Assembly: GCA_036490655.1 (NCBI GenBank)
Contig: DASXDM010000029.1
Span: forward strand, 146,670 to 210,669
Reading direction: 5' to 3'
DNA length: 64,000 nt
Source: Verrucomicrobiia bacterium
GTDB taxonomy: Bacteria > Verrucomicrobiota > Verrucomicrobiia > Limisphaerales > UBA11358
Shown piece after piece: positions 7,252 to 31,464 of this stretch (positions are counted from its first letter, which is position 1; each line of letters starts with the position of its first letter). Under the pieces are notes generated by a model that had not been told where the DNA came from, ran no database searches, and saw only the letters and a program-made list of their open reading frames with translations. The position numbers were made by a program, and so were the translations under genes.

Positions 7252-7395
7252 ACATTACAAAAATGTCACAAACGCGAAAAAGCAGCGAAAAGCGTATTAA
7301 AAAAGATTTTTTATTCTCGCTGTTACAATAAGTTTAACTTGGTTTTTGACCCGGTTAAAGTTATTGTTTCCGGACAACCCTTAGAACCCGTGACC

Positions 7396-10300: not shown

Positions 10301-13300
10301 CCGCCCTGTTCGACAACGGCCACTATTTCGGCACCGGCACTTCCACATTGCAGATCCAGTCCGTTCCAACCAATTACACTGGAAATTATTTCGTGGTCGC
10401 CACCAATACCGGAGGCTCGGTGACCAGTTCGGTGGCGAACATCACCGTCTTGATACCGCCGGCAATCACCCTGCAGCCAACCAACCAGACCGTTCTGGCA
10501 TCCTCCAACGTCACATTCAGCGTCCAGGTCACCGGCAGTGCGCCTTTGGGTTATCAATGGTATTTTAGTGGTGGGCAGTACAATGGCCCGCTCACCGATG
10601 GTGGACAGTTTAGCGGATCAACGGGCACGAATCTGACCATTTCAAATCTTCAATGGACGAACAATGGAACTTATTATCTGCTTGCGACCAACCTCGTTGG
10701 TACGGCGGCCAGTACCGTCGTCACGCTCACGGTGCTAAGTCCCCCGGTGCTGACTGCTCCATTCGTGAACCAGGTCGGCATGGTTTTCAATAATACGACG
10801 CTTGCGCTGTCCGTCACCGGCACACCAGCCTTGTATTACCAGTGGCAGAAAAATGGGACCAACTTGAGCGACGGCGGAAATATCAGCGGCTCCAGCGGAC
10901 CGGCCCTGACCATCACCAATTCGCAACTGGTCGACTCCGGTCAATATACCGCCATTGTCACCAACGCCTATGGCGCTCTCACCAACACGGCCACGCTGAC
11001 GGTGGTACCCATCTTCGACTGGGGCAATGATGTTCTGCTGCCGCCTGCCGATGCGACGAACGTCGTCGGCATCGCGTCGGCCGGCATCGAATTGAGCGCG
11101 GATTTCGCACTACGCGCGGATGGCTCATTGATTGGATGGGGAAATGACGCCTATGGGATTGTGGATATTCCAGCAAATGCGACCAACATCGTTTCCGTTA
11201 CCGGCGGTCCTGAGCAAACGATGGCTATTCGCCGGGATGGCACAGTGGTTACCTGGGGCGGGGGCGGAACCAATGTTCCCGATGCGGCAACAAATGTGGT
11301 TGCGGTTGCGATCCAGGGCTATACCGGTTGCATGGCATTGCGCCAGGACGGGTCTCTTGTCACCTGGAATGGCGTACCCACTCCTCCGGCTAATGCCACT
11401 AACCTGATCGCCATCGGCGCCGGTTTTTATCAATGTCTCGGCGTTCAGCAGAATGGAACAATCATTGCATGGGGCAGTAATTATTATGGTGAAGGGGCGC
11501 CCCCGGCGAATGCAACAAATGTCATCGCTGTGTCAGGTGGGATGAACGGCGCTTACCCCTACAGCGCCGCCTTGCGCGCCGACGGAACGGAGATAGGCTT
11601 CGGATACGCCCCCGGTTTGCCCGCTGCCGCAACTAATCTTGTCACCATCGCCGCGGGTAATAGCCATGTGATGGCATTGAGACAGGATGGGACCGCCTTT
11701 GGATATTCGGGGCCGACGACAACCAATTGCATCGCGATCGCAGTAAACGGGTACGGCTTCCATGACGTGGTTCTGACGCAGGATCCACGCGTGACCATGC
11801 CCCCGGCCATCATTCAATCACCGCTGGGCGCGGTCATTCAAACCAACCAGACTTTCCTTCTGCTGTCGCAAGCCGTGGGCGCCATGCCCATGCAGTCCCA
11901 GTGGTATCTCAATGGCACACCACTCGCCGGTCAAACAAACGGCTGGTTGCTTTTGCCTGCCATTCAAACCAGCCAAGGGGGAGCCTACCAGATTATTTAC
12001 ACGAATAATTTCGGTTCGGCAACCAGTTCGCCGGCCATTGTCTGGACGCCACCGGCTTTCACCAGCCCGCCTGCGACCATGGTTGCCTTTGGCTCGAATG
12101 CCATCTTTAGCGAGACCCTCGCCGGCACTTCGCCTTTCGGCTACCAATGGTATTTCAATGGGACGCCATTGAGTGACGGCGGTTTCGTCAGTGGCTCGGC
12201 TACGGCCAGTTTGATCGTATCAAATTTCCAATCAGCCAATTTAGGCAATTACACGCTGGCCGTCACCAATCTGGCCGGCTCCGTCACAAGTTCCCCCGCC
12301 CTCCTTACTATTGTCAATCCACTCGTAACAACCCAGCCGCAAGGCCAATCCGTCTTGGGCGGCGCAACCGTAGACTTTAGTGTGGCCGCGACCGGCCAGC
12401 AGCCGCTTGCCTATCAATGGGAGTTCGACGGAACCAATATCCTGAATGCGACGAACGACCCGCTGGTGTTAAGCAACGTCCTTGTGAGCCAATCCGGCCT
12501 TTACTCAGTCATCATCACCAACTCCTATGGCACGATTGTCAGTTCCAATGCCACGTTGACCGTGACCGCCTTGAGCTTCGCCAGGCAACCGGTGAATCAG
12601 ACGGTTTTGGGCGGTGGGACCGCAAACTTTACAGTGTCGATCAATGGCCAACAGCCCGTCTTCTACCAATGGGAATTCGATGGCACCAATCTGCCCGGAG
12701 CCACCAATGATCCACTGGTGATCACCAATGTATTGGTAAGCCAGTCGGGGCTGTATTCTGTTGTCGTCACCAATGCCTACGGCTCTGTCGTCAGTTCCAA
12801 TGGCACACTCACGGTTATGCCGCTGGCGTTCAAAACGCAGCCGGCCAACTGCATCACCTGGCCCAGTGGTTCGGCCACCTTCTCGGTGATTGTCTCCGGC
12901 CAGGCACCCTTTGGTTTTGACTGGCAATGCAACGGCGTGGATGTGCCCGGCATGTGGACCAATGTGCTGACCCTCACCAATGTCCAGTTCTCACAATTTG
13001 GGACGTACGATGTCATCGTCAGCAATGCCTACGGCAGCGTTGTCAGTACCAATGCATTCCTGTCCCTCTCTCAAGTTGCCGTTTGGGGAGGTCTTGATGG
13101 TGAATCCAATCTGGCGGCGGGTTTGACGAATATCATCGCCATCGCGGGTAATGGTCAGAGTGTCGTTGACTGCCTGGCGCTCAAGGCCAATTCCACAGTC
13201 ATCCATTGGCCGCGCACCAACTCTGTCACCATCAGCAACATCCTCTCCATGGCCGGTGGAGGGGGTGAGGGCCCGGCAATGGTGCTGACGGTCAGCAACA

Positions 13301-14115
13301 CGGCTGCCGAATTATTGAGCGACGATGTTTTGGAATCCATTTCCGGGTTTACCAATATCGTGGCGGTTGCTCCCTACATGTATTCGCCCCTGGCCATTCG
13401 GACCAATGGCATGCTTGTCTTTGGCGCCCAGTTGGCTGGCGGGCCTCCCAACCTGGGGTCGATAACCAATATAACCAATGCCGTTGCCGTCACGGAAGGC
13501 AATGGCTGGAGCATGGTGTTGAAAGCCGATGGAACAGTGACCGCCTGGGGAGGCAATACATATGGGCAAACCAACGTGCCACCAAATGCAACTAACGTTA
13601 TTGCCATCGCCGGCGGCTTTTATCATGGGCTCGCGCTCAGGAGCGATCACACTGTTATTGCCTGGGGACTTGATGCCAATGGCCAGACCAATGTGCCTCC
13701 CGGCTTGAGCAATGTGGTTGCCATCGCCGCCGGCTTTTATCATAGCCTTGCTTTGAGAGCGAATGGCACTGTCGTGGCCTGGGGCCAAAATACCTACGGC
13801 CAGACCAATGTGCCTCCCGGTTTGACCAACGTTATCGCCATCGCCGCCGGTGCGGCTCATAGCATGGCGTTGATTGGAAATGGGCCGCCCGTCGTCCAGG
13901 CATCCATCTCATCGCCCGCCGCCACTACCAATGGTTTCAGCCTGGCCGTGCCCAGCCAAAGCGGCAGGCTCTATATCCTGCAATTTGAAAACACTTTGTT
14001 CGACACCAACTGGAATTCCCTGCCGCCAGTGCCGGGCAATGGCGGGGTGTTACTCTTGAGCGATCCAACCGCAACCAACAATCTCCAGCGCTTCTATCGT
14101 GTTCAGCAATGGTGA
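7396..14115 (+). CDS. Giant secreted multidomain protein: Ig-like repeats, right-handed beta-helix, two RCC1-like repeat blocks, C-terminal FYRV module
   Basis: ATG at 7396 gives the signal peptide MRRSKTIFRVFLPVILAFLSLIFLAPGQAAAA. Ig-like modules (QPxNQT...YQW...NGT...Y.V.V.N..GS..S..A.LTV) lie at ~7.5-8.0, 9.9-11.0 and 11.8-13.07 kb. A beta-helix of ~20 coils (GGG...STL.NC.L..N) spans ~8.05-9.9 kb. RCC1-like repeats (WG.N.YGQTNVP...NV.AIAAG..HS.AL) lie at ~11.0-11.8 and 13.07-13.87 kb. The tail is ...NNLQRFYRVQQW. Confidence 0.85.
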   Translation: MRRSKTIFRVFLPVILAFLSLIFLAPGQAAAASITTQPQNQTNILGSNAVFTVIGGGQTPLLYQWSFYTTNLTNSAHIGGATNATLTITNITTADAGDYKVVVKNTHGSVTSSIVTLTVLLPATIGTQPANQAVNWMGNAAFAVGATGTGQLNYRWLFNGTRLSDNSQISGSATSLLNISGALPANIGNYQVVVTNNYGSVTSIVATLNVTNVFHYVNLNNSAPQSPYTNWSTAATNIQSAVDVANAGDSIFVTNGMYTLGNRVTSTTTNCVVVTNAISISSVSGPAQTVINGGGTNRCIYLTNGCSLSGFTITNGMTPENGGGIFCSSTNVVITNCVVAGSSAYIQGGGVYQGTLFTCVLTNNYAGGNAQGYPAGGGAGSSVLYNCTVSWNSGGSASGGGLFNCTANQCVLTNNSTGANAGGGAAQSTLNNCLIANNSGCGAGDFSTLNNCTLIGNTAPIYGGGASYSTLTNCTLIANIGVWGGGAEQSTLYNCTLISNSVSSTGGAAYICTLSNCTLIANTASSYYGGGVDQSTLYNSTLCNNFAGQWGGAAYNSTLYNCTLSNNISDGEGGGAYSCILSNCVLTANEATYGSAYGGGAFNSTLITCLVSNNGAYAGGGAYGGSLSNCVIIQNDAVLGGGALGSTLVQCSVLNGQAQYGGGLNSCTASNCILTGNLAIIGSTGAGAGAYTSSLYNCMLYSNRSFFTGGGAALSTLINCTIASNTAYGITGGGGGGVTSCTLTNSIIYFNTTGGNYSGSNNMSWCCTTPLPNDGSGDVVVGVNNTSSAPLFVNLANGNCRLYPGSPGIDSGNNAVVPVTVDLDGNARIVNGTVDLGAYEFQNSPFIEVQPTNQTVPLGAYVTFSVTTYGPGLTYQWQFNGTNILGATSSTYVLSFAQYNSAGTYTVTVTNSYGVASSSNAVLTVVPPTPPSFTLQPTNQTVAVAANVTLAAAASGAPPAAYQWYFNSTALFDNGHYFGTGTSTLQIQSVPTNYTGNYFVVATNTGGSVTSSVANITVLIPPAITLQPTNQTVLASSNVTFSVQVTGSAPLGYQWYFSGGQYNGPLTDGGQFSGSTGTNLTISNLQWTNNGTYYLLATNLVGTAASTVVTLTVLSPPVLTAPFVNQVGMVFNNTTLALSVTGTPALYYQWQKNGTNLSDGGNISGSSGPALTITNSQLVDSGQYTAIVTNAYGALTNTATLTVVPIFDWGNDVLLPPADATNVVGIASAGIELSADFALRADGSLIGWGNDAYGIVDIPANATNIVSVTGGPEQTMAIRRDGTVVTWGGGGTNVPDAATNVVAVAIQGYTGCMALRQDGSLVTWNGVPTPPANATNLIAIGAGFYQCLGVQQNGTIIAWGSNYYGEGAPPANATNVIAVSGGMNGAYPYSAALRADGTEIGFGYAPGLPAAATNLVTIAAGNSHVMALRQDGTAFGYSGPTTTNCIAIAVNGYGFHDVVLTQDPRVTMPPAIIQSPLGAVIQTNQTFLLLSQAVGAMPMQSQWYLNGTPLAGQTNGWLLLPAIQTSQGGAYQIIYTNNFGSATSSPAIVWTPPAFTSPPATMVAFGSNAIFSETLAGTSPFGYQWYFNGTPLSDGGFVSGSATASLIVSNFQSANLGNYTLAVTNLAGSVTSSPALLTIVNPLVTTQPQGQSVLGGATVDFSVAATGQQPLAYQWEFDGTNILNATNDPLVLSNVLVSQSGLYSVIITNSYGTIVSSNATLTVTALSFARQPVNQTVLGGGTANFTVSINGQQPVFYQWEFDGTNLPGATNDPLVITNVLVSQSGLYSVVVTNAYGSVVSSNGTLTVMPLAFKTQPANCITWPSGSATFSVIVSGQAPFGFDWQCNGVDVPGMWTNVLTLTNVQFSQFGTYDVIVSNAYGSVVSTNAFLSLSQVAVWGGLDGESNLAAGLTNIIAIAGNGQSVVDCLALKANSTVIHWPRTNSVTISNILSMAGGGGEGPAMVLTVSNTAAELLSDDVLESISGFTNIVAVAPYMYSPLAIRTNGMLVFGAQLAGGPPNLGSITNITNAVAVTEGNGWSMVLKADGTVTAWGGNTYGQTNVPPNATNVIAIAGGFYHGLALRSDHTVIAWGLDANGQTNVPPGLSNVVAIAAGFYHSLALRANGTVVAWGQNTYGQTNVPPGLTNVIAIAAGAAHSMALIGNGPPVVQASISSPAATTNGFSLAVPSQSGRLYILQFENTLFDTNWNSLPPVPGNGGVLLLSDPTATNNLQRFYRVQQW

Positions 14116-14200
14116 GCCACTGATAATTCGCCTCGTCTCCACTTGAAAAATGTCACTGATGGTGTACATTCTTTCATCAGGCAGGGTTAACCAGAATTCC

Positions 14201-15673
14201 ATGAATAAATTAATACAAAAAGTCCATGTCATCGTCGTTTTGTTCCTTGGTTTTATTCCAGTATTTCAGGCCACGGCGCAAACGTTCACGAACCTCCACA
14301 ACTTACTTTTCGCTGATGGAGCCAATCCGCACGCGGGTTTGATCGTTTCAAGCAATGTTCTGTTTGGCACTACGTCAAAAGATGGTGACGGGAGTTCATC
14401 AGATGGTTTTGGCACGGTATTCAGAATGAATACTACCGGCACGAGCTTCACGAATTTGTATGCGTTCAACCAGGGAACCGATGGTGGCGATATCGAGGGC
14501 GGCGTTGTCCTGTCAGGCAATACGCTGTATGGAACAGCGTATTTTGGCGGCGCGTCGAACGACGGTTGCATTTTTGCCATCCATACCGATGGCAGCGGTC
14601 GGACGAATATCTATAATTTTTCGACCGAATTGCCGCATGTGCCATTTTACACCAATAGCGATGGAGCGTACCCGTACTGCGGCCTTGCTTTGTCTGGCAA
14701 CACTTTGTTCGGCCCAGCAGAAGGTGGCGGCGCCCAGGGTTGGGGAACTCTTTTTGCCATCAATACCAATGGCACCCCATTTACCAACCTTGTCAATTTC
14801 GCCATCACGAATGGCCAGAATCCCGATTACAGCGTCGTTTTTTCGAGCAATGTGTTGTATGGAGTAACGGGTGGCGGCGGTACCAACAATTTTAGCGGTA
14901 ATGGCACGATATACCGGGTCAACGCAGATGGATCGAGCTTCACCAACCTTTACTATTTCTCTGTTCCGCTTTACGGCCCTGTTCCGGCGACCAACGCCGA
15001 CGGTGGTGATCCTTTGGGGACATTGGCTCTCTCTGGTAATACGCTCTATGGAGTCACCTATGACAACGGTTATTATGGCAATGGCACCATTTATAAAATC
15101 AATACCGACGGCTCGGCTTTCACTGTTATCCACGAGTTCACCGCCACTAACGGGATCAACTCTACCAATAGCGACGGTGCGTATCCCGAAGCCGGTTTGC
15201 TTTTATGGAGCAATGCCCTCTATGGGACTGCCTATCTCGGTGGAAAATTCGGCAATGGCACCGTGTTCAAACTGAATACTGACGGCAGCGGTTTCACGAC
15301 CTTGTACAGTTTCTCAGCGACCAACGCAGACATCAGCACCGACCCAACAATCTTCACCAATTCTGATGGCGCCCGGCCGCTCGGCAGCCTGATTGTTTCT
15401 GGAAGTACATTGTACGGCACCGCCAGCGTGGGTGGCACTAATGGTTTCGGCACCATCTTCAGCATCACCTTGCCAGTACAATTATATATCACTCGGTCCG
15501 GGACGAATGCCATCTTGTCCTGGCCGGTCGGCGTCAGCGGTTTCCAACCCCAGTACGCCACCAATATGGTATCGCCGGTGACCTGGAATACCATCATCTA
15601 CTCCGGCACCCAGAACATCGTGACCAATCCCATCACCAAGACCAACTTGTTCTTCCGGCTGATGCATCCGTAG
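14201..15673 (+). CDS. Secreted Gloeo_Verruco (GloVer) tandem-repeat protein with C-terminal FFRL module
   Basis: ATG at 14201 gives the signal peptide MNKLIQKVHVIVVLFLGFIPVFQATAQ. There are about 8 repeats of ...G..LYGTT..GG..G.GT.F..NTDGS.FT.LY.F.... The tail is NAILSWPVGVSGFQPQYATNMVSPVTWNTIIYSG...TNLFFRLMHP. Confidence 0.8.
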   Translation: MNKLIQKVHVIVVLFLGFIPVFQATAQTFTNLHNLLFADGANPHAGLIVSSNVLFGTTSKDGDGSSSDGFGTVFRMNTTGTSFTNLYAFNQGTDGGDIEGGVVLSGNTLYGTAYFGGASNDGCIFAIHTDGSGRTNIYNFSTELPHVPFYTNSDGAYPYCGLALSGNTLFGPAEGGGAQGWGTLFAINTNGTPFTNLVNFAITNGQNPDYSVVFSSNVLYGVTGGGGTNNFSGNGTIYRVNADGSSFTNLYYFSVPLYGPVPATNADGGDPLGTLALSGNTLYGVTYDNGYYGNGTIYKINTDGSAFTVIHEFTATNGINSTNSDGAYPEAGLLLWSNALYGTAYLGGKFGNGTVFKLNTDGSGFTTLYSFSATNADISTDPTIFTNSDGARPLGSLIVSGSTLYGTASVGGTNGFGTIFSITLPVQLYITRSGTNAILSWPVGVSGFQPQYATNMVSPVTWNTIIYSGTQNIVTNPITKTNLFFRLMHP

Positions 15674-16644: not shown

Positions 16645-17253
16645 TTATTCCTTGATCGCCTTGAGGCCCGCATCACCGGCAATGGCAGGATGGCCGGCAA
16701 TAGAGCCACGGATCGTCTTCACGTCGTCAGAAGAAATCGCATCGCCCTTGTTGCCCCAGGAACTGCGGACGTAGGTCAGCACGGCGGCCAAATCCGAATC
16801 GGATAGTCCCGCACCCATCGCCGCCATGGAAAGATTCCAGCTTTGGCCTTCCACCGTGACTTGTCCGTTAAGGCCAAGCTGGGGAATCTCAACGAGCCGT
16901 TGATGCCCGGCGGCATTGACCCATTCAGAGCCGGCCAATGGCGGAGCCTGACCGGGTTTGCCACTACCATCCGGTCCGTGACAGGCGGTGCAGATCGTAT
17001 CGTAGGTGTGTTTACCCTGCGCCAGAATCGCTGCCGCACCGGACACCGGCTGGTAAGATTCCAACTCATTGGCATCCGTGTACGGGGCATAAACCTGGGC
17101 GTTGAACCACCCGCTGTATTCATCGAAATATACGCCGCCGAGAAACAACAACAACAGCGCCACACAAAAGATCCAAACCGGCACGGCGAATCCATCGCCG
17201 GAAGATGGTTTTTCCGTCGCGGGCGAATGTTCTTTCAAATCGTCACTCATCAT
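16645..17253 (-). CDS. Membrane-anchored monoheme cytochrome c (last gene of the respiratory operon)
   Basis: 202-aa ORF with one N-terminal TM helix (VPVWIFCVALLLLFLGGVYF) and a single CTACH heme site with downstream Met (NLSMAAMG). It overlaps the upstream gene by 4 nt. Confidence 0.8.
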   Translation of the reverse strand: MMSDDLKEHSPATEKPSSGDGFAVPVWIFCVALLLLFLGGVYFDEYSGWFNAQVYAPYTDANELESYQPVSGAAAILAQGKHTYDTICTACHGPDGSGKPGQAPPLAGSEWVNAAGHQRLVEIPQLGLNGQVTVEGQSWNLSMAAMGAGLSDSDLAAVLTYVRSSWGNKGDAISSDDVKTIRGSIAGHPAIAGDAGLKAIKE

Positions 17254-18071
17254 TTTTTCGCTTGGGCAGTTGGCGCTGGCGCGGCGGCGGCCATGGTGAA
17301 CGGCGCGTCATGCAGCGGAACATCCGCGTGCAGGCTCAGCAGATATGCCGCCAAATTCCTGGCCGCATTGGACGGCACCACTTCAAAGCCGGACGGCGGC
17401 CCAAAGCCTGCCGGCAATTGCAAGGCATCCGGCGAGGGCGTAGCGCCAATTTTTTGCACGAGAAACATAAACCGGAACGGCGGCATGGCCGAGTCCTTCG
17501 CCGCCGCTTGCGGCGCATACAGGTGGAGCAACTGCCAACTGAAGCTGCCGAGGCGGCCGCCTACGTTTGCCAGATCCGGGCCCATGCGGAGGCTGCCAAG
17601 CTGGACCGGATAGTCCCACAGAAAATCTTCAGAAACACTGCGGCGGGCACCCCACCCTCGCGCAACGTCTCCCCCGGTTGGAATGATGTGGATCTCAGTC
17701 TTGCCACCGGCGCCAGTGATCTGGTCGGAGGCGGACTGGGCATCATCTTTATCCAGGTTTTTCAATGAGAGAGATGAGAGCAAATTGCTGACGGCGGTAG
17801 GATTTTTGCCCATGCCGGTCACTACGACGTCGCACGAAACTCCGCCCTGCTGAAGCTGGGTGGTATGACACGCCGCGCATCCGTACCGGCGGTAAACCTG
17901 CAAGCCGAGCGTGGCGTCGCCAGTGCGCTGCAAGGGATAGGTTTGAGATGAATTGAGCACGTCCGTCTGCTTCTGGGTGCCAAGCTGCTCCATCGGGGCC
18001 AGGACGAATCCGCCCCAGGAAAGGCCCAGCGCGATGAACGAGACCAGGAAAATGCGGCAACTGCTGGTCAC
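17250..18071 (-). CDS. ccoO: cbb3-type oxidase subunit II (CcoO)-like monoheme cytochrome c
   Basis: N-terminal TM helix, then GLQVYRRYGCAACHT (CcoO-type heme c site). RMGPDLANVGGR and WQLLHLYAPQ...SAMPPF match the conserved CcoO blocks. About 55 aa are inserted after the heme motif. Confidence 0.7.
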   Translation of the reverse strand: MTSSCRIFLVSFIALGLSWGGFVLAPMEQLGTQKQTDVLNSSQTYPLQRTGDATLGLQVYRRYGCAACHTTQLQQGGVSCDVVVTGMGKNPTAVSNLLSSLSLKNLDKDDAQSASDQITGAGGKTEIHIIPTGGDVARGWGARRSVSEDFLWDYPVQLGSLRMGPDLANVGGRLGSFSWQLLHLYAPQAAAKDSAMPPFRFMFLVQKIGATPSPDALQLPAGFGPPSGFEVVPSNAARNLAAYLLSLHADVPLHDAPFTMAAAAPAPTAQAKK

Positions 18072-19483
18072 GATTTCACCTCCTGCAATTTAACAGGCGG
18101 CCGAACGATGGCGATAAAGCCTTTCGCCAGCGCCAAATTCCATTTGATCGTCATGACAAAAATATTAGCGGCAAACATCAGGCTGCCGAGCAGCAGCAAA
18201 AACAGACCCAGGGTGCTGAAGCGAAGGAATGGCAGCGCGGACTGGAAATTATAATCATTCATCCCCTGCGCCAGGCCGCCGATCGCCAGCATGAGAACCA
18301 GCAGGACAGCTCCGGCCATAAAAGCCCAATGCTGGAAGCGGACGAATTTCGGGAAAGGCCACTCCATACCCATCACCGAAGGCATCAGCTCATAGATCGC
18401 ACCGCAGATGACGATGGTGAAAAAGCCGAGGATTTGAAGGGACGATTGCGCCTGGACATACCAGGTTATCCCGGCCCACGAGCCAAAATGAGGGCAGCCC
18501 AGCGGCAAAAGCATCAACGTGGCCAAAATGAAAGCGGTCGTGCCGAATTTGATGTAACAAAACGGGCCGCCTTTGCACTGCGGCTTCGTTCCTGTGAGCG
18601 AGGGGCCAGTAACGGTTCTGGCAAAAACCGTCAGGAGGGAAAAGATCGGAATGAGCATCAAGACCGAGGCAAAGGTACTGGCGGCCGGCAACCAGGCCGG
18701 GACGGGCGCGCCCTGCGGGATTCCGCACCACGTTGAGAACAGGATAAACGTCACAAAGCCGAACAGCGCCAGGTCAGGATTATGGAGCGGACGCCCGGCG
18801 AACTTTGGCAGGAAATAGAACGCCAATCCAAGGCCAACCAGAGCGAACCAGACAAAGATCAGGTTGTTGGTGAACCACCAATCGATCACCGCCTGGGCCA
18901 CACCGCGCACCGGCCAGGCGACGAGGAAAATATTTGCGGTCGTGTAAATCCATGGGAACCAGACCAATGCCGCGAGCAGGAACCAATGCGCCGGCTGCAA
19001 TTTGCGCTCGCGCCGCGCACCAAACGTCGCCATGGCGGAAATGGCGATCAGCATATAGGCGGAGAATAATAGAACGGAAGCGCCGCGGGGAAATTCCAGC
19101 CATTGAAATCCGGTGGTGTCCCCGATAAAGATCGCCACCAGCCCGACCAAAACACCCAGGTGCCAGATGTTCGCCGCCAGGACCGGCACCAGTGGCAAGA
19201 CCAGTTCAGATTCACTTAAGCGCGCGAACACCCAGAGGATCACTCCGAGTGCGGCGGGAATGCAAAAGCCATAAAGGACGGCATCATTGGCAGCGGCCTG
19301 CAAGCGGCCATAGGCGAGCCAGGAATGATCCGCAAACATTGACGGGTTATGGAAGGTGAGCGAGGCGGCCAACTCGATCGCCAACCCGACCACAAGCCAC
19401 AACGCTGCTCCGCCAAAAAGCGCCAGCAAAGGCACGCGACAAGTATCGCCGATCGCCGGATCAATTTTTTCGTTTCGGTTCAT
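18068..19483 (-). CDS. CcoN-like (heme-copper oxidase subunit I family) polytopic membrane protein lacking the canonical metal-ligand histidines
   Basis: 471 aa. Hand alignment to cbb3 subunit I blocks: YGRLQAAANDAV vs GRLRPLHTNAV, DWWFTNNLIF vs QWWYGHNAVGF, FYFLPKFAGRP vs YYFVPKQAERP, TWCGIPQ vs WAGPHH, WYVQAQSS vs WTIGHVHAG, GAIYELMPSVMG vs GALYHLVPKVFG. See finding. Confidence 0.75.
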   Translation of the reverse strand: MNRNEKIDPAIGDTCRVPLLALFGGAALWLVVGLAIELAASLTFHNPSMFADHSWLAYGRLQAAANDAVLYGFCIPAALGVILWVFARLSESELVLPLVPVLAANIWHLGVLVGLVAIFIGDTTGFQWLEFPRGASVLLFSAYMLIAISAMATFGARRERKLQPAHWFLLAALVWFPWIYTTANIFLVAWPVRGVAQAVIDWWFTNNLIFVWFALVGLGLAFYFLPKFAGRPLHNPDLALFGFVTFILFSTWCGIPQGAPVPAWLPAASTFASVLMLIPIFSLLTVFARTVTGPSLTGTKPQCKGGPFCYIKFGTTAFILATLMLLPLGCPHFGSWAGITWYVQAQSSLQILGFFTIVICGAIYELMPSVMGMEWPFPKFVRFQHWAFMAGAVLLVLMLAIGGLAQGMNDYNFQSALPFLRFSTLGLFLLLLGSLMFAANIFVMTIKWNLALAKGFIAIVRPPVKLQEVKS

Positions 19484-19489
19484 TCAAAT

Positions 19490-19867
19490 CTATTCAAAAA
19501 TGCTGGGTTTCGGCGCCACTTTTGGCAAAGGCGCGGTCGCTTTTTGTGAGCGTGCCAGCAATTCGGCGCGGGCTTGCGCCGGGTTCTGCCATTGCTCGAC
19601 TGACATCTGCAGCGCCATATCGATGGGCAATCGCACGATGCCCCGCTGTTTGTCCACCCAGCCCGGATGGTTGAGCGACGCGACTTCGTTGCTGCGAATA
19701 TTCATCAAGGTGCCGGCGATGACCGCGTTGCGATCGGCGTCGATCGCCGGAGGATGGACAGACAGTTTCGCGATGACGATAAGCACCACGAACAAAAGGC
19801 TGACGATGACAAATCCAACCGCCGCGCCGCTCGCGCGATTGATGCCGACATTGTCGTTCCTGTTCAT
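19490..19867 (-). CDS. Small single-pass membrane protein within the ACIII operon
   Basis: 125-aa ORF with one TM helix (AAVGFVIVSLLFVVLIVIA). Its start overlaps the actF stop by 4 nt. No family recognised. Confidence 0.5.
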   Translation of the reverse strand: MNRNDNVGINRASGAAVGFVIVSLLFVVLIVIAKLSVHPPAIDADRNAVIAGTLMNIRSNEVASLNHPGWVDKQRGIVRLPIDMALQMSVEQWQNPAQARAELLARSQKATAPLPKVAPKPSIFE

Positions 19868-21132
19868 TGCGCGCCTCCTTCATCCGGCAAGGTGCCGGGT
19901 AATTCCTCCGGCTCAAGCCCGATGCCCATCGCCTCGAGCACGCGCGGATCGCGTTGCGGGTAAGGCGGGTGGCTCAGGAATTTTTTCAAGAACACACACG
20001 ACAGAAAACCCAACATAAAAATAAAGCAGCCGAGATGCAGCCAGATCCATTGGAACGGATATCGGTCCGGGCTCACGCCGGGCAGGATGTTGAAGGCCAG
20101 GTCGGTGAAGGACATGAACCACGCCCACAGGCAGATGGGAACCATGATCTTGAAATTCATCTTTACGCGGATGGGCAGCAGAATAAAGAAGGGCAACATG
20201 AAATGCCCGAAAATCAAGAGCAGGCTGATCCCCCACCACGAACCATGTTCGCGGATGAGATACCAGAATGTTTCCTGGGGCATATTCGCGTTCCAGACGA
20301 CGAAATATTGGGCAAATTCATCGTACGCCTGGAACAGGGTGAATGCGAAAAGCAAGGTGCCGATGAAATAGAACGAATGGTCGTGCAGCACACGATCCAG
20401 GATGCGCTGGCGTTGCATGAGCACCATCAGGATATAAATCGTGGCAAGCGCGAGCCATCCACAGCTGGCAAAGTAATAGACTCCGTACTCCGCCGAATAC
20501 CAGCGATGCTCGATGGCCTGCATCCACAGTACCGGCGCCACATACATCATCAATCCCAGCACCACGATCCCCCACCCCGAATAAAAGCGCATCCGGTAAG
20601 TGCATACCGGCTCGCCGGTCACATCCTGCCGCAATGACCAATAATTGATGCGGCCGGTCATCAGCCACCAAATGGCAAAGAAAATGGCTGAAGTGACCCA
20701 GAAACCCGGGATTGTGAACACCGGCCATTTCACGACGACGCTCGGGTCAGTCGCAGGCAGGGACATCCAATGGTAAAGCTGTGTCACCTGCGGGAACTTT
20801 GTGGCAAGAACTGTTGCAAGGATGCCAACCGGCAAGAACAAGATCGCCAGCCACGGGAACAGCAACGACGCCAAGTGTTCATTGACGCGACGCGTCGCCA
20901 CGGACCAGCCGGCATCGCTCAAATGATGGATGAAGACGAAGGCCAACGCGCCGAGCGAGAGCGTCAGGAAAAACATGAAGGACAAGAGCCACGAATAGGC
21001 AAATTCACTGGGGCTGGCGATGAGGCCGATCAGCGACAAAATCCCGCCGATAGCCATCAGGACGGACGGCGCCTTGCGCCAGCCGGAGAGATCCAGCGGC
21101 GGCGGCAATTCATTTTGTACGTGCTTTTGCAT
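19864..21132 (-). CDS. actF: Alternative complex III subunit ActF (polytopic membrane subunit)
   Basis: 422-aa multi-TM protein placed directly after actE, as in described ACIII operons. The call rests on position, size and hydrophobicity. Confidence 0.7.
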   Translation of the reverse strand: MQKHVQNELPPPLDLSGWRKAPSVLMAIGGILSLIGLIASPSEFAYSWLLSFMFFLTLSLGALAFVFIHHLSDAGWSVATRRVNEHLASLLFPWLAILFLPVGILATVLATKFPQVTQLYHWMSLPATDPSVVVKWPVFTIPGFWVTSAIFFAIWWLMTGRINYWSLRQDVTGEPVCTYRMRFYSGWGIVVLGLMMYVAPVLWMQAIEHRWYSAEYGVYYFASCGWLALATIYILMVLMQRQRILDRVLHDHSFYFIGTLLFAFTLFQAYDEFAQYFVVWNANMPQETFWYLIREHGSWWGISLLLIFGHFMLPFFILLPIRVKMNFKIMVPICLWAWFMSFTDLAFNILPGVSPDRYPFQWIWLHLGCFIFMLGFLSCVFLKKFLSHPPYPQRDPRVLEAMGIGLEPEELPGTLPDEGGAQ

Positions 21133-21142: not shown

Positions 21143-21796
21143 TCATTTCAACGCGGCCTGCTGCTCACCGGACAGATCATTGATGTTGCCAAGCCAGCTC
21201 AATTGCAAGGCGCGCACATACGCCACGATCGCCCAACGGTCTTCAGTGGGGATGATCGGGCCGTAAGCGCCCATGGTGTTCTTGCCATGCGTGATGGTGT
21301 TGAAAATCTCGCCGTCGGTCAGTCCCACAATCCGGGCATCATGAAGGTTTGCCACAGCCGGCATGTCGCCAATGCTCTTGGTGATGCCGTTGCCGTCGCC
21401 CAGGCGTCCGTGGCAGGGCGAACAATAGATGTCAAAACGTTCACGGCCATGCGCGAGCATTGCGCTGCTCACCGGCAACGGGTTGTTCTCAATGAAGTTG
21501 GTCGTCCCGACAATCTTTCCGGTGTTCACTGGTGAATCTTCAAAATAATAGACCGAACCTTCCGTCGTTTGGATGGGATCGTTGCGCGCAATGGTACCGG
21601 CGGGCGGCAATTGCGAGCTGACGCCATTGGCAAAAAATTCGTCCGGCTTCTGCGGGCGCAATCTCGGCTGGCGGTTCATGTCGGCAAAGATCTCAATCGG
21701 CGGTTTGCGCGAGATACGCCCGCGCACTCCGACAATGGCAAATAACGCCACCGAGAGCACGATCACAACCAGGATGACAGAGATGAGATAACGCAT
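21143..21796 (-). CDS. actE: Alternative complex III subunit ActE (monoheme cytochrome c)
   Basis: 217-aa ORF with an N-terminal TM anchor and a single CSPCH heme site. It lies between actD and actF. Confidence 0.8.
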   Translation of the reverse strand: MRYLISVILVVIVLSVALFAIVGVRGRISRKPPIEIFADMNRQPRLRPQKPDEFFANGVSSQLPPAGTIARNDPIQTTEGSVYYFEDSPVNTGKIVGTTNFIENNPLPVSSAMLAHGRERFDIYCSPCHGRLGDGNGITKSIGDMPAVANLHDARIVGLTDGEIFNTITHGKNTMGAYGPIIPTEDRWAIVAYVRALQLSWLGNINDLSGEQQAALK

Positions 21797-22332
21797 CAGT
21801 TGTCCTCCACGATTTCGATGTTGGTCCCGCCGACCTCCTCAAGGAGTTTGCGGGTGGCAACCTCGGAGAATTTCGGATCAGCAGAGCCGATGACGAGGAA
21901 AAATTTATCGCGGGAGACCAGTTCAAAGCGTTTCTTGTTGAACAACGGATGGTGGTGCCGCGGCAGTTGGTTGAGCGCGACCATGCCGATAAACGTGCCG
22001 ACGCCCGCAGCCAATACGAGCAGGATGTAGGCCGGCACGAAAGACATAGGCAGACTGAACATCGGTTTGCCGCCGACGATGAGCGGATAATCGAAATCGT
22101 TGCAATACCAGATCAGGCCCAGGGTGCCAAGGAAGGCGCCCCCGCCGAACACCAGCGAAAACAAGCCGACGAGTGAATTGCCCAGGCCCATGACTTTGTC
22201 GAGGCCGTGGACGGGGAACGGAGAAAAGACGTCCCAACGGTGATAGCCCGCGTCACGGACTTTCTTCGCCGCGTCGAGGACTGCGCCGGGTGAATCAAAC
22301 TCGGCCATGATGCCGTAATTCTGTTCGCTCAC
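21796..22332 (-). CDS. actD: Alternative complex III subunit ActD (DUF3341 family)
   Basis: 178-aa ORF. The N-terminus YGIMAEFDSPGAVLDAAKKVRDAGY is typical of ActD/DUF3341 and is followed by two TM helices. It overlaps actC by 4 nt. Confidence 0.8.
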   Translation of the reverse strand: MSEQNYGIMAEFDSPGAVLDAAKKVRDAGYHRWDVFSPFPVHGLDKVMGLGNSLVGLFSLVFGGGAFLGTLGLIWYCNDFDYPLIVGGKPMFSLPMSFVPAYILLVLAAGVGTFIGMVALNQLPRHHHPLFNKKRFELVSRDKFFLVIGSADPKFSEVATRKLLEEVGGTNIEIVEDN

Positions 22333-23759
22333 GACTTGCCTCCTTTCGCCCCGCCGAGCGGGTGATGAGGATCGGCTTGCGGTGTGATGGCCTTGACTTC
22401 CGAGACAGGGACCATCGGCAAAAAGCGGATGAACAATAGATACATCGTGAAGAAGACGCCGAGCGTGCCGACATAGGTCATCACGTCCACCCAGGTCTGC
22501 TTATAAAAACCCCAGTTGGCGGGCAGAAAATCCTGGTAGAGCGAGCCGACAATGATGGTGAAGCGCTCGAACCACATGCCCAGGTTAATGAGCAGGCCGA
22601 GGACAAACACAAACTTGAGATTAGCGCGAAACTTCTTGAACCACAGCAATTGCGCCAGGCCGACGTTGACGACGAGCATGATCCAGCCGCCATACCAATA
22701 CGTGTGGCCCAACAGACGATGACTGAACACCCAGCGTTCATAAGGATCGCCGCTGTACCATGCGATGAAATATTCCATCAAGTAAATGTAGCCGATGGCC
22801 AAACTGCTCAAGAGGGTCAGCTTGCAGATGCGATCCATGTGCCGCATCGTGATGATGTCTTCCAGATTGCAAAGTTTTCGCAGCGGGATCAGCAGGACCA
22901 AAATCATGCCGAAGCCGCAATAAACTGCGCCGACGACGAAATACAGCGGGAAAATCGTCGCATGCCAGCCGGCGATCTGCGCCGTGGCAAAGTCCAGGCC
23001 GACGATCGAGCTGACGGTGAACACCAGCAACGTCGCCAAACCGGACAGGATGAGATAGGCCTTTTCGTAATTATGCCAGTGCCGGGCCGAACCGGTCCAA
23101 CCGAGGGCAAACAACCCATACGCGAATTTCTTCACCGGGGTTCTTGCACGGTCGCGCAGGAGCGCCAGATCGGGAATCAATCCCATGTACCAAAATACCG
23201 ATGAGATCACGAGATAGGTATTGACGGCAAAAACGTCCCACATCAGCGGCGAACGGAATTGCGGCCACATCCCCTCATACGTCGGCACGGGGAACATGAA
23301 CCAGTCGAACCACGCGCGACCGACGTGGATGCCTGGATAAAGCCCGGCCATCATCACGGCGAACACGGTCATCGCCTCGGCAGCGCGGCCGATGGCTGTG
23401 CGCCAATGTTGCCGCGTCAAAAATAACATCGCTGAAATGAGGGTGCCGGCGTGGGCCACACCGACCCACCAGACGAAATTGATGATGTCCCAGCCCCACA
23501 TGACCGGCTTGTTATTACCCCAGACACCGACGCCGGTGGAGATCTGGTAAGCCAACATCCCGGGCAGCACGAATGCCGCGCAGAATGCCGCCGGGGCAAA
23601 GGCAACCCACCACCAGAGCGGAGTTTTGCCGTCATTGAATGCGGTCAGCCTGTCCGTCAACCAGCCAAGGCCCTGATTGCCGATGATATTCGGCGAACGG
23701 CGCAGTTCCGGCGGCGGAGCAAGCGTTTTACGCAATTCAATCTGTGTCGTCTCTGGCAT
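22329..23759 (-). CDS. actC: Alternative complex III subunit ActC (NrfD/PsrC-type quinol-interacting membrane subunit)
   Basis: 476-aa polytopic membrane protein of NrfD-like character, placed immediately after actB. Confidence 0.85.
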   Translation of the reverse strand: MPETTQIELRKTLAPPPELRRSPNIIGNQGLGWLTDRLTAFNDGKTPLWWWVAFAPAAFCAAFVLPGMLAYQISTGVGVWGNNKPVMWGWDIINFVWWVGVAHAGTLISAMLFLTRQHWRTAIGRAAEAMTVFAVMMAGLYPGIHVGRAWFDWFMFPVPTYEGMWPQFRSPLMWDVFAVNTYLVISSVFWYMGLIPDLALLRDRARTPVKKFAYGLFALGWTGSARHWHNYEKAYLILSGLATLLVFTVSSIVGLDFATAQIAGWHATIFPLYFVVGAVYCGFGMILVLLIPLRKLCNLEDIITMRHMDRICKLTLLSSLAIGYIYLMEYFIAWYSGDPYERWVFSHRLLGHTYWYGGWIMLVVNVGLAQLLWFKKFRANLKFVFVLGLLINLGMWFERFTIIVGSLYQDFLPANWGFYKQTWVDVMTYVGTLGVFFTMYLLFIRFLPMVPVSEVKAITPQADPHHPLGGAKGGKS

Positions 23760-23766: not shown

Positions 23767-26700
23767 TTAGCTGGTTGTTTTCGGCATTTCACCGCCGCGA
23801 TCTTCGTACTCCTCCGTGCTGAACGGCACATGGAAGTCCGGCATGGCCGGGTTCGGGTTGCGGATGCGCGCGAGATAACTCGTGCGCGGCTTCGTCAACA
23901 AGTTGCCGAGCAACAGGTAATTCTGGGATTGGTTTTTCCACTTCATCACGCTGCTTTCCGGATCGCTGATATCGCCGAAGACGATGGCGCCCGCCGGACA
24001 GGCCTGTTGGCAGGCCGTCTTGGGGACGGTGCCTTGAGCTTCAATGAGGCGAACGTCGTTGCCGGCGCCGGCCTTGACCTTCTGCGCGATCTTCGCGTGC
24101 TCGATCCGCTGCGTGCAGTACGTGCATTTTTCCATGACGCCGCGCATACGCACGGTCACGTCCGGATTCTTTGAAAGCTTGATCAGGTCCCACGTTTCCT
24201 CATCGGTCAAAGGCGCTTCGCGGTCTTTCCACCAGCGCACCAAGTCGGATTGGCCGTCAGTTTTGCTGAAGAGCGGCGTCGGATAGTACGGCCCCTTTAA
24301 TTCGTCCAGCGGACGCTTGTTGTAATCGAGGAAATTGAAATGGCGAACTTTGTACGGGCAATTGTTCGAGCAGTAACGCGTGCCGATGCAACGGTTGTAC
24401 GCCATCACGTTCAGGCCTTCCTGGTCGTGGACGGTGGCGTTCACGGGGCAGACGTTTTCGCACGGGGCGGCCTCGCACATCTGGCACATCACCGGCTGGT
24501 TCACGGCCTGCACTTCGTCGATCCAACTCGAAAACTGCTGCTCGTTGTCTTTGACGTAAGTCTCGGGGAATTTCTCAGTCTTGGGATCGGCGGTATAATA
24601 ACGGTCGATACGCATCCAATGCATCTCGCGGCCGCGCAACACCTGGTCTTTGCCCACGATGGGAATATTGTTCTCGCTCTGGCACGCCAACACGCACGTA
24701 TTGCAACCGACGCACGCGGTCAAATCCACTGCCATGCCCCATTGGTGCAAGGCGGTTTTCTCAGCGGCATCGAGCGGGTTGGGATAAAGAGACTGGACGA
24801 TCGGGGGCTCCGGCTCGTGCATCTCCGCCGCGTATGCCGGGTTTTTCTCGAAATCCGCCAGGTTGACTTCGCGCACCGCCGGGCGGCCTTCCATGGACCA
24901 ATGCGTCTGCGTAGTCGCAATGACGTGTGAATCTCCGGTCTTGCTGACCGTGGCGCCGGTCTCGACGTATTTACCGTTGAAAATTTTATAGGCGTTGAAT
25001 CCAACACCCGTGCCAATCCGCCCTGCTTTCTCGCGGCCATAACCGAGCGCGATGCCGAGCGAATAATCCGCCATGCCGGGCTGCGTCCAGACCGGGCCGG
25101 AAACTTTTTTACCATTCAACGAAATCTCCACGACGTCGCCGTTTTGGACACCGAGATCGCTTGCCGTTTTGCGGCTGACAAGGACCGCATTGTCCCAGAC
25201 AATTTTGGTGATTGGGTCCGGCAATTCCTGCATCCAGCCGTTATTGGCGTAGCAGCCGTCGTCCACTTTCGAATCACGATAGAAAACAACTTCGAGGGAA
25301 TTGGCAGAAGGCGCGGAGGCGCTCGCGACGCGAGGAATCGACGTCAATTGATCACTTGGAAGATTCACCGGGCCGCCAGCGGAACCTTCAAGAAAACCGT
25401 TATATAAAAATTTCTTCCAGCCTTCATCACTGCCGCGGAAAGTTTTTTGAACGATCTCGTGCGGGTTTGTCTCCGTTTCACCGGCCAGCCGCGCCAAAAA
25501 TTCCAAATCAGTCAATCCGCCGAAGAGCGGTTGGATCAATGGCTGGATGGCCACGGTAGTTCCATCGCTGGTCAGCGCATCGCCCCAGGACTCGAGATAA
25601 TGGGCGGCCGGGAAATGCCAGTTGGAACCATTCGCCGTTTCGTCTTCGTAATATCCGAGACGAATGACCTCCCCGCTTTTTGCCACACTGATGGATGAAT
25701 CGATCGACCGATGGTAAGCCGGGTTGCCGCCCAAAATCACCAATGACTGTATTGAGTAACCGGATTTAATCAATTGATTGAATTCATCGAGCCTGCCGCC
25801 GAAAGTTTCCGGCGACGGCACCAGGGTCATCGTTTTGCCGATTGCGCCGAGAACGGAATTGATGGCATGAGCAATCAGATGCACTTCCATGGGCTGGCGG
25901 TGTCCGGCGACGACTAAAGCATTTCCACGGTTGGCCAGCAAATCCCTGGCGCATTCCATGATCCAATTGGGATCCACTCCGCCAGGAATCTTGAGGGATT
26001 GCCCGGTGACACCGGCATAAAACGCCGCTGCGATCTGGGGAACCAAACTCGCCGCCACCCGCAGGCGATGGTCTGCATTCGCGCCGGTCAACGTGAACAA
26101 AGATTCGACGCTGTAAAGCCGGCTCATGCCGTCCTTAGCTTTACGGCCAGCAGCATATTTTTGGATATTATTATGCGCATTGTCCTCGCCGCCGATGAAA
26201 TCGCTGTCGAGCGACAGGATGACTTTCGCTTTATCAAAATTAAAGATGGGCTTGACCGCCTGGCCGTAGGCCTGCGTGGCCGCGCGCTGATGGATGCCGG
26301 AATCGATCGCGTCGTACGTGAACCACTTCGACTCGGGCAATTTTCGCGTGATGATCGCCTGCAAGCGCGCCCGTGAAGGCGACGTGCTGGTTTCCGCGAC
26401 GAAGACGAGCCCCCGCCCTCCGTTCGCCGAGAATTTTTGCGACAGGGCACTTAACGCGTTCAGCGCCTGGTCGCGAGAAACCGCCTGGCCATTGCTCACA
26501 AACCGGCGGGCGCGGTCAGGGTCGTAAAGATTCAGGATGGACGCCTGCGCAAAGCGATCGGTGCCGCCATTGCTTCCTGGATAAAGCGAATTGCCTTCAA
26601 CTTTTATCGGACGCCCGTCGTATGACTTGGCGACCAGCGGAATGGCGCCAGTGCGCGTGGGCATGGCGGTCGCATAATATTCGTAGGTGCCAAAAGTGTA

Positions 26701-26976
26701 ATTCTCCGGCTGCTGGCCGAACGGCTCCAGATGCTCTTCCGGACGACGGCAACCTGCGCCTGCGAGGCCCAAGCCCGCCAGCGCGAACGAGGCCGACATG
26801 ATTTTCAGGAAATGCCGGCGCGAAACGTCATCGGGAAATTCGCTGGCGCCTTTCGGAAATTCCCGGTGCAGCCATTCCTTGAACTCCGGCGTATCCGCGA
26901 GTTCGTCCATGCTGCGCCAGTAACGGCGGCCATTTCCATTTCCGGAAGTATGTGAAATTTCGTTCATCGATGACAT
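23767..26976 (-). CDS. actB: Alternative complex III subunit ActB (molybdopterin-oxidoreductase-like / 4Fe-4S fusion, Tat signal)
   Basis: 1069 aa with the twin-arginine signal SRRHFLKIMSASFALAGLGLAGAGC and a molybdopterin-oxidoreductase-like N-terminal half. The C-terminal ferredoxin-type clusters are CVGCNTCVLAC, CQMCEAAPCENVCP, CIGTRYCSNNCP and CTYC...CQQACP. Confidence 0.9.
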   Translation of the reverse strand: MSSMNEISHTSGNGNGRRYWRSMDELADTPEFKEWLHREFPKGASEFPDDVSRRHFLKIMSASFALAGLGLAGAGCRRPEEHLEPFGQQPENYTFGTYEYYATAMPTRTGAIPLVAKSYDGRPIKVEGNSLYPGSNGGTDRFAQASILNLYDPDRARRFVSNGQAVSRDQALNALSALSQKFSANGGRGLVFVAETSTSPSRARLQAIITRKLPESKWFTYDAIDSGIHQRAATQAYGQAVKPIFNFDKAKVILSLDSDFIGGEDNAHNNIQKYAAGRKAKDGMSRLYSVESLFTLTGANADHRLRVAASLVPQIAAAFYAGVTGQSLKIPGGVDPNWIMECARDLLANRGNALVVAGHRQPMEVHLIAHAINSVLGAIGKTMTLVPSPETFGGRLDEFNQLIKSGYSIQSLVILGGNPAYHRSIDSSISVAKSGEVIRLGYYEDETANGSNWHFPAAHYLESWGDALTSDGTTVAIQPLIQPLFGGLTDLEFLARLAGETETNPHEIVQKTFRGSDEGWKKFLYNGFLEGSAGGPVNLPSDQLTSIPRVASASAPSANSLEVVFYRDSKVDDGCYANNGWMQELPDPITKIVWDNAVLVSRKTASDLGVQNGDVVEISLNGKKVSGPVWTQPGMADYSLGIALGYGREKAGRIGTGVGFNAYKIFNGKYVETGATVSKTGDSHVIATTQTHWSMEGRPAVREVNLADFEKNPAYAAEMHEPEPPIVQSLYPNPLDAAEKTALHQWGMAVDLTACVGCNTCVLACQSENNIPIVGKDQVLRGREMHWMRIDRYYTADPKTEKFPETYVKDNEQQFSSWIDEVQAVNQPVMCQMCEAAPCENVCPVNATVHDQEGLNVMAYNRCIGTRYCSNNCPYKVRHFNFLDYNKRPLDELKGPYYPTPLFSKTDGQSDLVRWWKDREAPLTDEETWDLIKLSKNPDVTVRMRGVMEKCTYCTQRIEHAKIAQKVKAGAGNDVRLIEAQGTVPKTACQQACPAGAIVFGDISDPESSVMKWKNQSQNYLLLGNLLTKPRTSYLARIRNPNPAMPDFHVPFSTEEYEDRGGEMPKTTS

Positions 26977-31119: not shown

Positions 31120-31464
31120 GGTAATCTGTTTAGCACGATAAATTGCCGCAAACAAACTTTTTTGGGTGTTTTTTATCATTTCGTTCAAGAGGCTTGATTT
31201 TTTCTTGCTGATGCCTTCGCCAAGCCCGTAAAAACGGTTAAATTTAATCTTCTTTTCAAATTGAACTCGACACGCCAACCATAGCACGCATGGTGCCAAC
31301 GAAATAAACGTTGAAATGGCTTCTCGGCTACGAACGAAGTCAAAGCTCGCCTACATCAAACTAAACCGCCAAACGCCTTGCCCACCTCGTGGCGCTGTCC
31401 CGGTCAACACAAGGACATTGCAGGAGGTTCTTTCACTCGCAACGTCCGGATCGCTTTCGGTCAT

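Follow-up and report, generated by a model that had tools for sequence, protein, structure and literature searches.

A CcoN-like protein without the six canonical heme and copper histidines in a verrucomicrobial alternative complex III operon

The DNA analysed here is a stretch of 64,000 nucleotides from a Verrucomicrobiia bacterium of the Limisphaerales (contig DASXDM010000029.1, positions 146,670 to 210,669), referred to below as the window. Its minus strand carries an operon for alternative complex III (ACIII), and the eighth gene of this operon, which begins with ATG, encodes a 471-residue protein related to CcoN, the subunit I of cbb3-type oxidases. An earlier reading of the DNA letters alone (the sequence-only reading) had suggested that this CcoN-like protein has lost all six histidine ligands of heme b, heme b3 and CuB. 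We find that the loss is real and that it is shared by a large family of proteins, and we discuss what such a subunit may do for ACIII.

Results

Organization of the operon

The operon extends from actA to a gene for a membrane-anchored cytochrome c (Table 1) and is tightly packed: between neighbours there is either an overlap of 1-13 bp or a gap of no more than 10 nt. A complete ActABCDEF set is present in this one cluster, as is expected of an ACIII operon. The CcoN-like gene shares the 4 bp at its stop with the start of the CcoO-like gene, which in turn has a 4-bp overlap with the gene for the 202-residue cytochrome c. Neither the ActF of the window nor its equivalents at other loci have a Pfam match; Fer4 domains were found in the ActB equivalents of loci L045 and L046. 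A scan of the operon for promoters and terminators gave counts equal to the shuffle expectation.

Table 1. Genes of the ACIII operon in the window, listed from actA downstream (TM, transmembrane)
Feature	Coordinates	Strand	Basis
ActA, pentaheme cytochrome c	26964-27659	minus	Pfam Cytochrome_C7/c3
ActB, 1069 residues, molybdopterin-like B1 and iron-sulfur B2 domains	23767-26976	minus	open reading frame and synteny
ActC, NrfD/PsrC-like quinol-binding membrane subunit	22329-23759	minus	Pfam NrfD, E=4.8e-17
ActD	21796-22332	minus	Pfam ActD, E=4.8e-56
ActE, ACIII monoheme cytochrome c	21143-21796	minus	Pfam Cytochrome_CBB3
ActF, 422 residues, ACIII membrane subunit	19864-21132	minus	position and synteny in 40+ loci
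Small single-TM protein, 125 residues	19490-19867	minus	4-bp overlap with actF
CcoN-like pseudo-oxidase subunit, 471 residues, 12-TM heme-copper-oxidase fold	18068-19483	minus	Pfam COX1
CcoO/FixO-like monoheme cytochrome c, 273 residues, N-terminal TM helix	17250-18071	minus	Pfam FixO, E=8e-16
Membrane-anchored monoheme cytochrome c, 202 residues, CTACH, CcoP position	16645-17253	minus	Pfam Cytochrom_C / Cytochrome_CBB3

This gene order is not peculiar to the window. Contig reach permitting, the CcoN-like gene is followed by genes for the CcoO-like protein and the cytochrome c in 43 loci of species-representative genomes, and in the same loci it is preceded by actF, together with actA-E where the contig extends that far. 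The same order was found in seven further places chosen for diversity (L044-L048 and two contigs of the Joint Genome Institute, JGI); the loci number 51 in all. The heme-c sites are retained almost throughout: a single CxxCH motif is present in the CcoO-like protein in 45 of 47 loci, in the downstream cytochrome c in 43 of 44 and in ActE in 41 of 42, and ActA has five such motifs in 26 of 27.

An alignment of the CcoO-like protein with solved CcoO structures runs through the heme motif and the GPDL...MP(F/Y) block that carries the axial Met. In the window this protein keeps CAACH, GPDL and MPPF (with the Met ligand), and the cytochrome c keeps CTACH; the two retained heme sites had been noted from the letters. 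A monoheme cytochrome c of the CcoO type directly downstream is the partner expected of a member of the CcoN family. The window's CcoO-like protein has an insert of ~65 residues between CAACH (residues 66-70) and the GPDL...MPPF block (from residue 144); canonical CcoO has 203-210 residues, and the called genes at other loci encode up to ~300.

The 125-residue small protein has no Pfam or NCBIfam match. It is matched by tblastn in L001-L011, L033, L035 and L041, a match confined to the closer clade and two of the distant loci. Called genes of 98-153 residues stand between actF and the CcoN or CcoN-like gene in L044-L047 as well as in one JGI contig, in ligand-less and canonical clusters alike. 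Among these, the 153-residue protein of Telmatocola shows weak similarity to the genes of L046 and L041. The small TM protein is a candidate for an additional subunit of the ACIII-cbb3 unit or for a factor in its assembly.

Fold and homology of the CcoN-like protein

The homology of the 471-residue protein to CcoN is beyond doubt. It matches Pfam COX1 with E=8.4e-23, and its top match in the Protein Data Bank is Pseudomonas stutzeri CcoN (3mk7_A, E=5e-17). The AlphaFold2 model (mean pLDDT 93.9, pTM 0.92) shows the helices of a 12-TM bundle, and in Foldseek it superimposes on seven cbb3 CcoN chains with TM-scores of 0.83-0.85 (0.83 for 3mk7_A); NorB (4xyd_A, 3o0r_B) and subunit I of the A and B families match less well than CcoN. 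The blocks from which the sequence-only reading had recognized the family are all in place (YGRL at residue 58, LEFP at 129, DWW at 201, FYFLPK at 222 and GAIYELMPSVMG at 361). Identity to the solved CcoN structures is nevertheless only ~20%, and with 85.9 bits against a cut-off of 583.15 the protein does not pass the curated ccoN equivalog model TIGR00780.

Loss of the metal ligands

To place the ligand columns, residues 22-453 of P. stutzeri CcoN were rebuilt from the alignment, which confirmed the numbering of H60, H207, H257, H258, H345 and H347. At these columns, the window protein has A65 for H60, N206 for H207, P256 for H257, Q257 or a gap for H258, Q346 for H345 and S348 for H347. The bis-His pair of the low-spin heme b (H60 and H347) is thus missing, as are the proximal ligand of heme b3 (H345) and the three ligands of CuB (H207, H257 and H258). 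The nitric oxide reductases cNOR and qNOR (NorB) hold heme b, heme b3 and FeB by six conserved His plus Glu, and for these, too, the ligand columns of the window protein have no His. The ligand-site blocks quoted from the letters are present (AAANDAV at 63, WWFTNN at 202, WCGIPQ at 252 and WYVQAQS at 341), and the claimed loss of all six ligands stands; the residues given for the last two, about Ala345 and Ser347, were off by one, a slip in TM10 that is immaterial because there is no His between 332 and 385.

Given the low identity, and since the TM10 block is the least certain in pairwise comparison, one may ask whether a shifted alignment has merely hidden histidines that do stand at the ligand positions. 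Five alignments agree in finding none: the pairwise phmmer alignment, MAFFT alignments with 120 homologs, with the 43 genome loci and with 125 diverse representatives, and an hmmalign profile alignment to a hidden Markov model (HMM) built from canonical, fully liganded CcoN sequences only. Moreover, the protein has just seven His residues, exactly those listed earlier (45, 53, 108, 166, 234, 332 and 385), none of which is near the ligand positions of TM2, TM6, TM7 and TM10, and relatives that retain some of the ligands align in the expected columns. The agreement of the alignments and the placement of the seven His rule out an artefact of this kind, to which we give practically no weight.

Other features of the catalytic centre have gone as well. 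The window protein has S for Y251, which we take to be the cross-linked active-site Tyr, S for R437, which presumably binds a heme propionate, and M for E323, to which we likewise assign a catalytic role. Y317 is replaced by F or a gap. These residues, R437 apart, are assumed to form the K_C channel of cbb3 together with Y223, T215, S240 and H243, which are F, A, A and G here. R437 is invariant in five canonical sequences, and so are the glycines next to the ligands (G211, G349 and G324), presumed to pack against the hemes, which are replaced in most ligand-less representatives. Their replacements are commonly larger, with a mean gain in side-chain volume of 58 to 86 cubic angstroms; judged from these volumes, the pattern is consistent with heme pockets that would be filled by side chains.

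Because heme b, heme b3 and CuB could not be bound, we predict with high confidence that the window protein has none of the three sites and reduces neither O2 nor NO, in agreement with the view that this cannot be a catalytic O2 or NO reductase subunit.

A subunit without metals might still conduct protons or other ions for ACIII, or act in it as a pumping module driven by conformational coupling, and a proton-channel scaffold was among the roles offered by the sequence-only reading. Subunit I of the heme-copper oxidases (HCO) is the scaffold of a proton pump, proton translocation by ACIII has been proposed to occur through ActC and ActF (PMC5928083), and the family conserves a few polar intramembrane residues (N108/H108, E130, R157, Q197, T340 and Q406). 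However, the K_C columns hold mostly small or apolar residues (F at Y223, A/G at T215, A at S240, A/G at H243, a gap or F at Y317, G/A/S at Y251 and L/M at E323). Of the polar residues, E130 (equivalent to E125), R157 (R152) and Q406 also occur in canonical CcoN and are situated in loops or at the ends of helices, and no driving force is known inside a subunit that has no redox centre. The loss of the channel residues speaks against a proton-channel role, and we regard the conduit as quite improbable.

Conservation and selection in the family

The loss is shared by all 120 closest database homologs (62-100% identity), in which the H60 and H347 columns are occupied by A/G and Q/Y/F/M/L, respectively. 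A search of 1.84 billion cluster representatives at 50% identity returned 282 clusters at E<1e-30, and about 125 full-length representatives among the best 150 were taken as a diverse set. Only three of these (P0206, P0215 and P0235) show the full HHYHHHH pattern, and about ten others retain at least one heme b His (H60 or H347). The remaining representatives have at most three of the six His each, most of them none or one, and their former ligand columns are nearly free to vary (A/G/S/Q/F; N/H/G/Q/S; P/H/Q/T; and so on). By contrast, conservation reaches 90% or more at some 30 other positions, against an overall identity of roughly 35%.

With all catalytic features lost and the ligand columns drifting freely, the gene might be thought a decaying, functionless remnant, retained only by its embedding among needed genes of the operon. 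Its ratio of nonsynonymous to synonymous substitution rates (dN/dS) against five orthologs is 0.11-0.18, though, which equals that of ActF (0.11-0.18) and of the CcoO-like gene (0.11-0.20). The gene is full-length and intact in 40 of the 43 genome loci (in L011, L033 and L038 the open reading frame is shortened, and in three others the contig breaks off within it) as well as in the roughly 125 representatives, and deep divergence of the clades has proceeded without gene loss. Given the dN/dS values and the family-wide conservation, together with the confident AlphaFold2 model, the gene is not decaying, and a remnant is very hard to reconcile with these data. We conclude that the CcoN-like protein is functional, that its metal ligands are no longer needed, and that it is a member of a very large, old family under purifying selection. 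Homology to an enzyme, loss of the cofactor residues and purifying selection together mark it as a pseudoenzyme.

Some conservation is confined to the window's closer relatives. The close clade conserves N206/N207, Q257 and Q346, and in the 120 close homologs C15, C303, C309, C330, H45, H108, H166 and H385 are at least 95% conserved; these eight Cys and His are not shared by every member of the wider ligand-less family. The predicted cytoplasmic loop between TM8 and TM9 contains C303 and C309 or is close to them. According to the helices assigned by DSSP in the AlphaFold2 model, H45 is at the periplasmic end of TM1, and H166 and H385 are at the cytoplasmic ends of TM5 and TM11. A relocated His ligand pair drawn from H45, H108, H166 and H385 was considered and rejected: these residues are a feature of the close clade only, and the topology places them on opposite faces of the membrane.

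By organism name, the carriers are verrucomicrobial (Limisphaerales, Pedosphaera, Candidatus Udaeobacter/Chthoniobacterales, Opitutales and Prosthecobacter). The exceptions among ligand-less or partial proteins are metagenome-assembled genomes (MAGs) labelled Candidatus Acidoferrum and Baltobacteraceae, and the MAGs of L009, L012, L027, L034 and L035 bear the labels Bifidobacteriaceae, Nitrospirota, Alphaproteobacteria, Bryobacteraceae and Dormiibacterota. Since the contig sequences are nearly identical in type to those of Udaeobacter, binning contamination is a more likely source of the odd-phylum labels than horizontal transfer.

A canonical relative, partial forms and the origin of the family

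The nearest relative with all ligands is the CcoN of the planctomycete Telmatocola sphagniphila (WP_213498146.1, locus L045 on CP074694.1). It shares with the window the order ActA-F, small TM protein, CcoN, FixO and cytochrome c, as well as a common N-terminal signature, ID.SCR.P. Unlike the window protein, it retains HHYHHHH. The Telmatocola locus also differs in having a gene for FixS/CcoS directly upstream of ccoN (L045:9729-9989) and a gene for a 933-residue P-type ATPase directly downstream (L045:13027-15828), which together flank ccoN, ccoO and the cytochrome c gene. We take FixS/CcoS and the P-type ATPase (CcoI) to be cofactor-assembly genes of cbb3. Within 10 kb, tblastn detects neither of them, be it around the window gene or at the 47 other loci, which is consistent with a lost need for cofactor assembly.

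Partial forms were found in several lineages. In the Udaeobacter clade (L012-L043, e.g. L013:10001-11344) the protein has 492 residues and is 35% identical to that of the window; it retains H60, H347 and R437, the low-spin heme b site, but H207 is replaced by N, H257 by T/Q, H258 by R, H345 by Y and Y251 by S. With Tyr at the proximal position of heme b3 and Arg and Asn nearby, this form could be a one-heme protein or have a Tyr-ligated heme. An Opitutales protein (P0173, from the MAG of L047) shows the pattern HHAQYHH, in which only two CuB His and the Tyr are lost, and a cluster from Prosthecobacter sp. (P0261) shows HHGQKLT, in which H60 and H207 are retained and the rest lost. Where the context is visible, the Opitutales and Prosthecobacter forms stand in the same ACIII setting, and their patterns look like stages of a stepwise dismantling.

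In a rough neighbour-joining distance tree, the canonical and partial forms lie near the base, with the ligand-less forms radiating from them, and the scores against the canonical HMM drop in the same order (489, 472, 350, 257 and 252 bits). The simplest history is that the oxidase of an ACIII-cbb3 "superoperon" lost its binuclear centre first and heme b afterwards. The sequence-only reading had spoken of a protein recruited into ACIII; degeneration in place, from a canonical cbb3 oxidase already linked to ACIII, is more likely in view of the synteny with a liganded CcoN in Telmatocola and the near-basal position of the intermediates.

The partial forms also bear on the question of whether the ligand-less proteins still bind a redox cofactor, through non-histidine or relocated ligands, and use it for a new reaction or for transmembrane electron transfer. 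Candidates would be a heme held by Met, Lys, Tyr or Cys, a quinone in the emptied cavities, or a metal on Asn, Gln or Asp. Purifying selection is strong, the close clade conserves the Asn, Gln, His and Cys residues named above, and the Udaeobacter form shows a bis-His heme b pair with R437 and, as the proximal residue at b3, a Tyr. In other HCO families the low-spin heme can be bound by Lys or Met, and Asp or Asn can occur in the active site (PMC11214002). Nevertheless, no common replacement site is apparent across ~120 diverse representatives, the close-clade His and Cys are not family-wide, and H45 would be on the periplasmic side of the membrane while H166 and H385 would be on the cytoplasmic side. 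R437 and the heme-packing glycines are lost, and the genes for CcoS and the Cu-ATPase are gone from the locus. We therefore consider a cofactor of this kind unlikely.

Other features of the window

On the plus strand, 7339-15673 encodes a 2258-residue secreted protein with many Ig-like and RCC1-like repeats, which adjoins the respiratory operon region and is followed by a 507-residue beta-propeller-like repeat protein. At 31316-32519 (plus strand), two adjacent open reading frames share near-identical peptide stretches, ATLSTM..NKRADHNRNIR, and in one of them RGRFASIECLEECGR occurs two times. The region looks like a repeated DNA element rather than a pair of real genes.

Discussion

Proposed role of the CcoN-like protein

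We propose, with a probability of roughly 0.6, that the CcoN-like protein is a CcoN-derived, non-catalytic and cofactor-less membrane scaffold for a heme-c electron relay on ACIII. The protein would be kept as a folded 12-helix subunit that is co-translated with ActABCDEF, the small TM protein and the two monoheme cytochromes. As an inert scaffold it may anchor and position the CcoO-like protein and the second cytochrome c, and it probably docks both onto ACIII. Electrons from menaquinol would pass along the heme wire of ActA/ActE to the two extra hemes c and leave from there to a separate acceptor, which could be a soluble cytochrome c, a caa3 oxidase or a periplasmic reductase. The physical association with ACIII, the path of the electrons and the absence of a replacement cofactor are what we infer. 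The idea of a scaffold with an electron exit, which the sequence-only reading had put forward, appears to be the best reading of the locus.

Several points weigh against this proposal. The CcoN-like protein, the CcoO-like protein and the cytochrome c would be partners of ACIII on the evidence of synteny and translational coupling, and the filling of the heme pockets would follow from residue volumes. A dN/dS of ~0.1-0.2 over such deep divergence is not obviously explained by a scaffold, and there could be an additional activity. The conserved H45, H108, H166 and H385 of the close clade, with its four Cys, might bind something. Finally, no other oxidase was found in the 64-kb window, in which 20 further open reading frames were examined.

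There is also a broader, tentative possibility, which we think doubtful on present evidence: the CcoN-like protein and its two cytochrome partners would be an integral subunit set of a kind of ACIII not recognised before and widespread among the Verrucomicrobiota, and the emptied scaffold may have acquired a new activity. Such an activity might be the gating of electron exit by a cavity filled with quinone or lipid, or an ion path coupled to conformation; in the forms of Udaeobacter, Opitutales and Prosthecobacter, new chemistry could take place at a heme b or Tyr-ligated heme site.

Annotation and significance

As predicted from the letters, automatic annotation treats these proteins as oxidases: the records of NCBI and JGI name them "cbb3-type cytochrome c oxidase subunit I". 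The lineages affected by the misnaming are Limisphaerales/Pedosphaerales, Candidatus Udaeobacter, Opitutales and Prosthecobacter, which include some of the most abundant soil bacteria. If the sole "cbb3" of a genome is the ligand-less protein, inferences of high-affinity microaerobic respiration are wrong. Genome papers on Verrucomicrobiota count a cbb3 oxidase among the terminal oxidases; a 2026 one on Limisphaera, for example, names cbb3 beside caa3 and bd oxidases (PMC13608581).

A recent survey of the HCO superfamily states that, outside gNOR, the active-site histidines are completely conserved (PMC11214002). A ligand-less family with hundreds of clusters at 50% identity contradicts this statement. 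We found no description of ligand-less CcoN homologs in the literature, where an earlier mention in subscription papers on the evolution of ACIII or cbb3 is possible. One paper credits Muntyan et al. 2015 with an "unknown group" of COX1 proteins (PMC5492636), which might include such sequences. Together with relatives that are canonical or half-degenerate and stand in the same kind of operon, the ligand-less family documents the stepwise dismantling of a terminal oxidase. For the biology of ACIII, it predicts a form of the complex to which a heme-c exit module is attached, built on an inert oxidase scaffold. Should the emptied scaffold prove to have a new activity, it would be the first HCO fold to work without hemes and copper, and one with living intermediates.

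Comparison with known systems

The closest structural comparison is with CcoN of the P. stutzeri cbb3 oxidase (3MK7/5DJQ). Both proteins have the 12-TM fold and share equivalents of the structural residues W24, G54, R55, R83, W102, E125, R152, W162, W204, Y224, P227, P265, W267, G352, P367, G391, G403 and Q406, and both systems have the gene order N, O and cytochrome c with a CcoO partner that bears heme c. The window protein differs in lacking the ligands of heme b, heme b3 and CuB, the cross-linked Tyr, R437, E323 and the K_C channel, and in falling far below the ccoN equivalog cut-off; its locus has no ccoS, ccoI or other assembly genes nearby.

Departures from the canonical active site are known among the gNOR, nNOR, eNOR and sNOR families (Murali et al. 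2024), which are HCO members without the active-site Tyr and with ligand substitutions, among them His to Asp or Asn (PMC11214002). In those families, however, one ligand is changed and both hemes and the metal site are kept, whereas the family of the window protein is without all six and has no common replacement.

A precedent for the proposed scaffold is found within ACIII itself. The B1 domain of ActB resembles molybdopterin enzymes and binds no prosthetic group (PMC5928083); as is proposed for the CcoN-like protein, it derives from a catalytic subunit and persists without its cofactor, in the same respiratory complex, in a structural capacity. B1 differs in its fold and origin, which are those of CISM, the family comprising the complex iron-sulfur molybdoenzymes, and its loss of the cofactor is ancestral to all ACIII, in contrast to the lineage-specific loss of ligands in CcoN with its visible intermediates.

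With respect to the complex as a whole, the nearest counterparts are the supercomplexes ACIII-caa3 of R. marinus and ACIII-aa3 of F. johnsoniae, in which oxidase-type genes also lie directly downstream of the act genes and ACIII hands electrons directly from the heme wire of ActA/ActE to the adjacent oxidase (PMC5928083). A similar association, with heme-to-heme hand-over from ActE/ActA, would be expected here from the genes. The partner in those complexes is an active oxidase of the A family, whereas that of the window is a derivative of the C family; because its subunit I has no redox centre, the module would not be the terminal acceptor of the electrons that it receives from ACIII.

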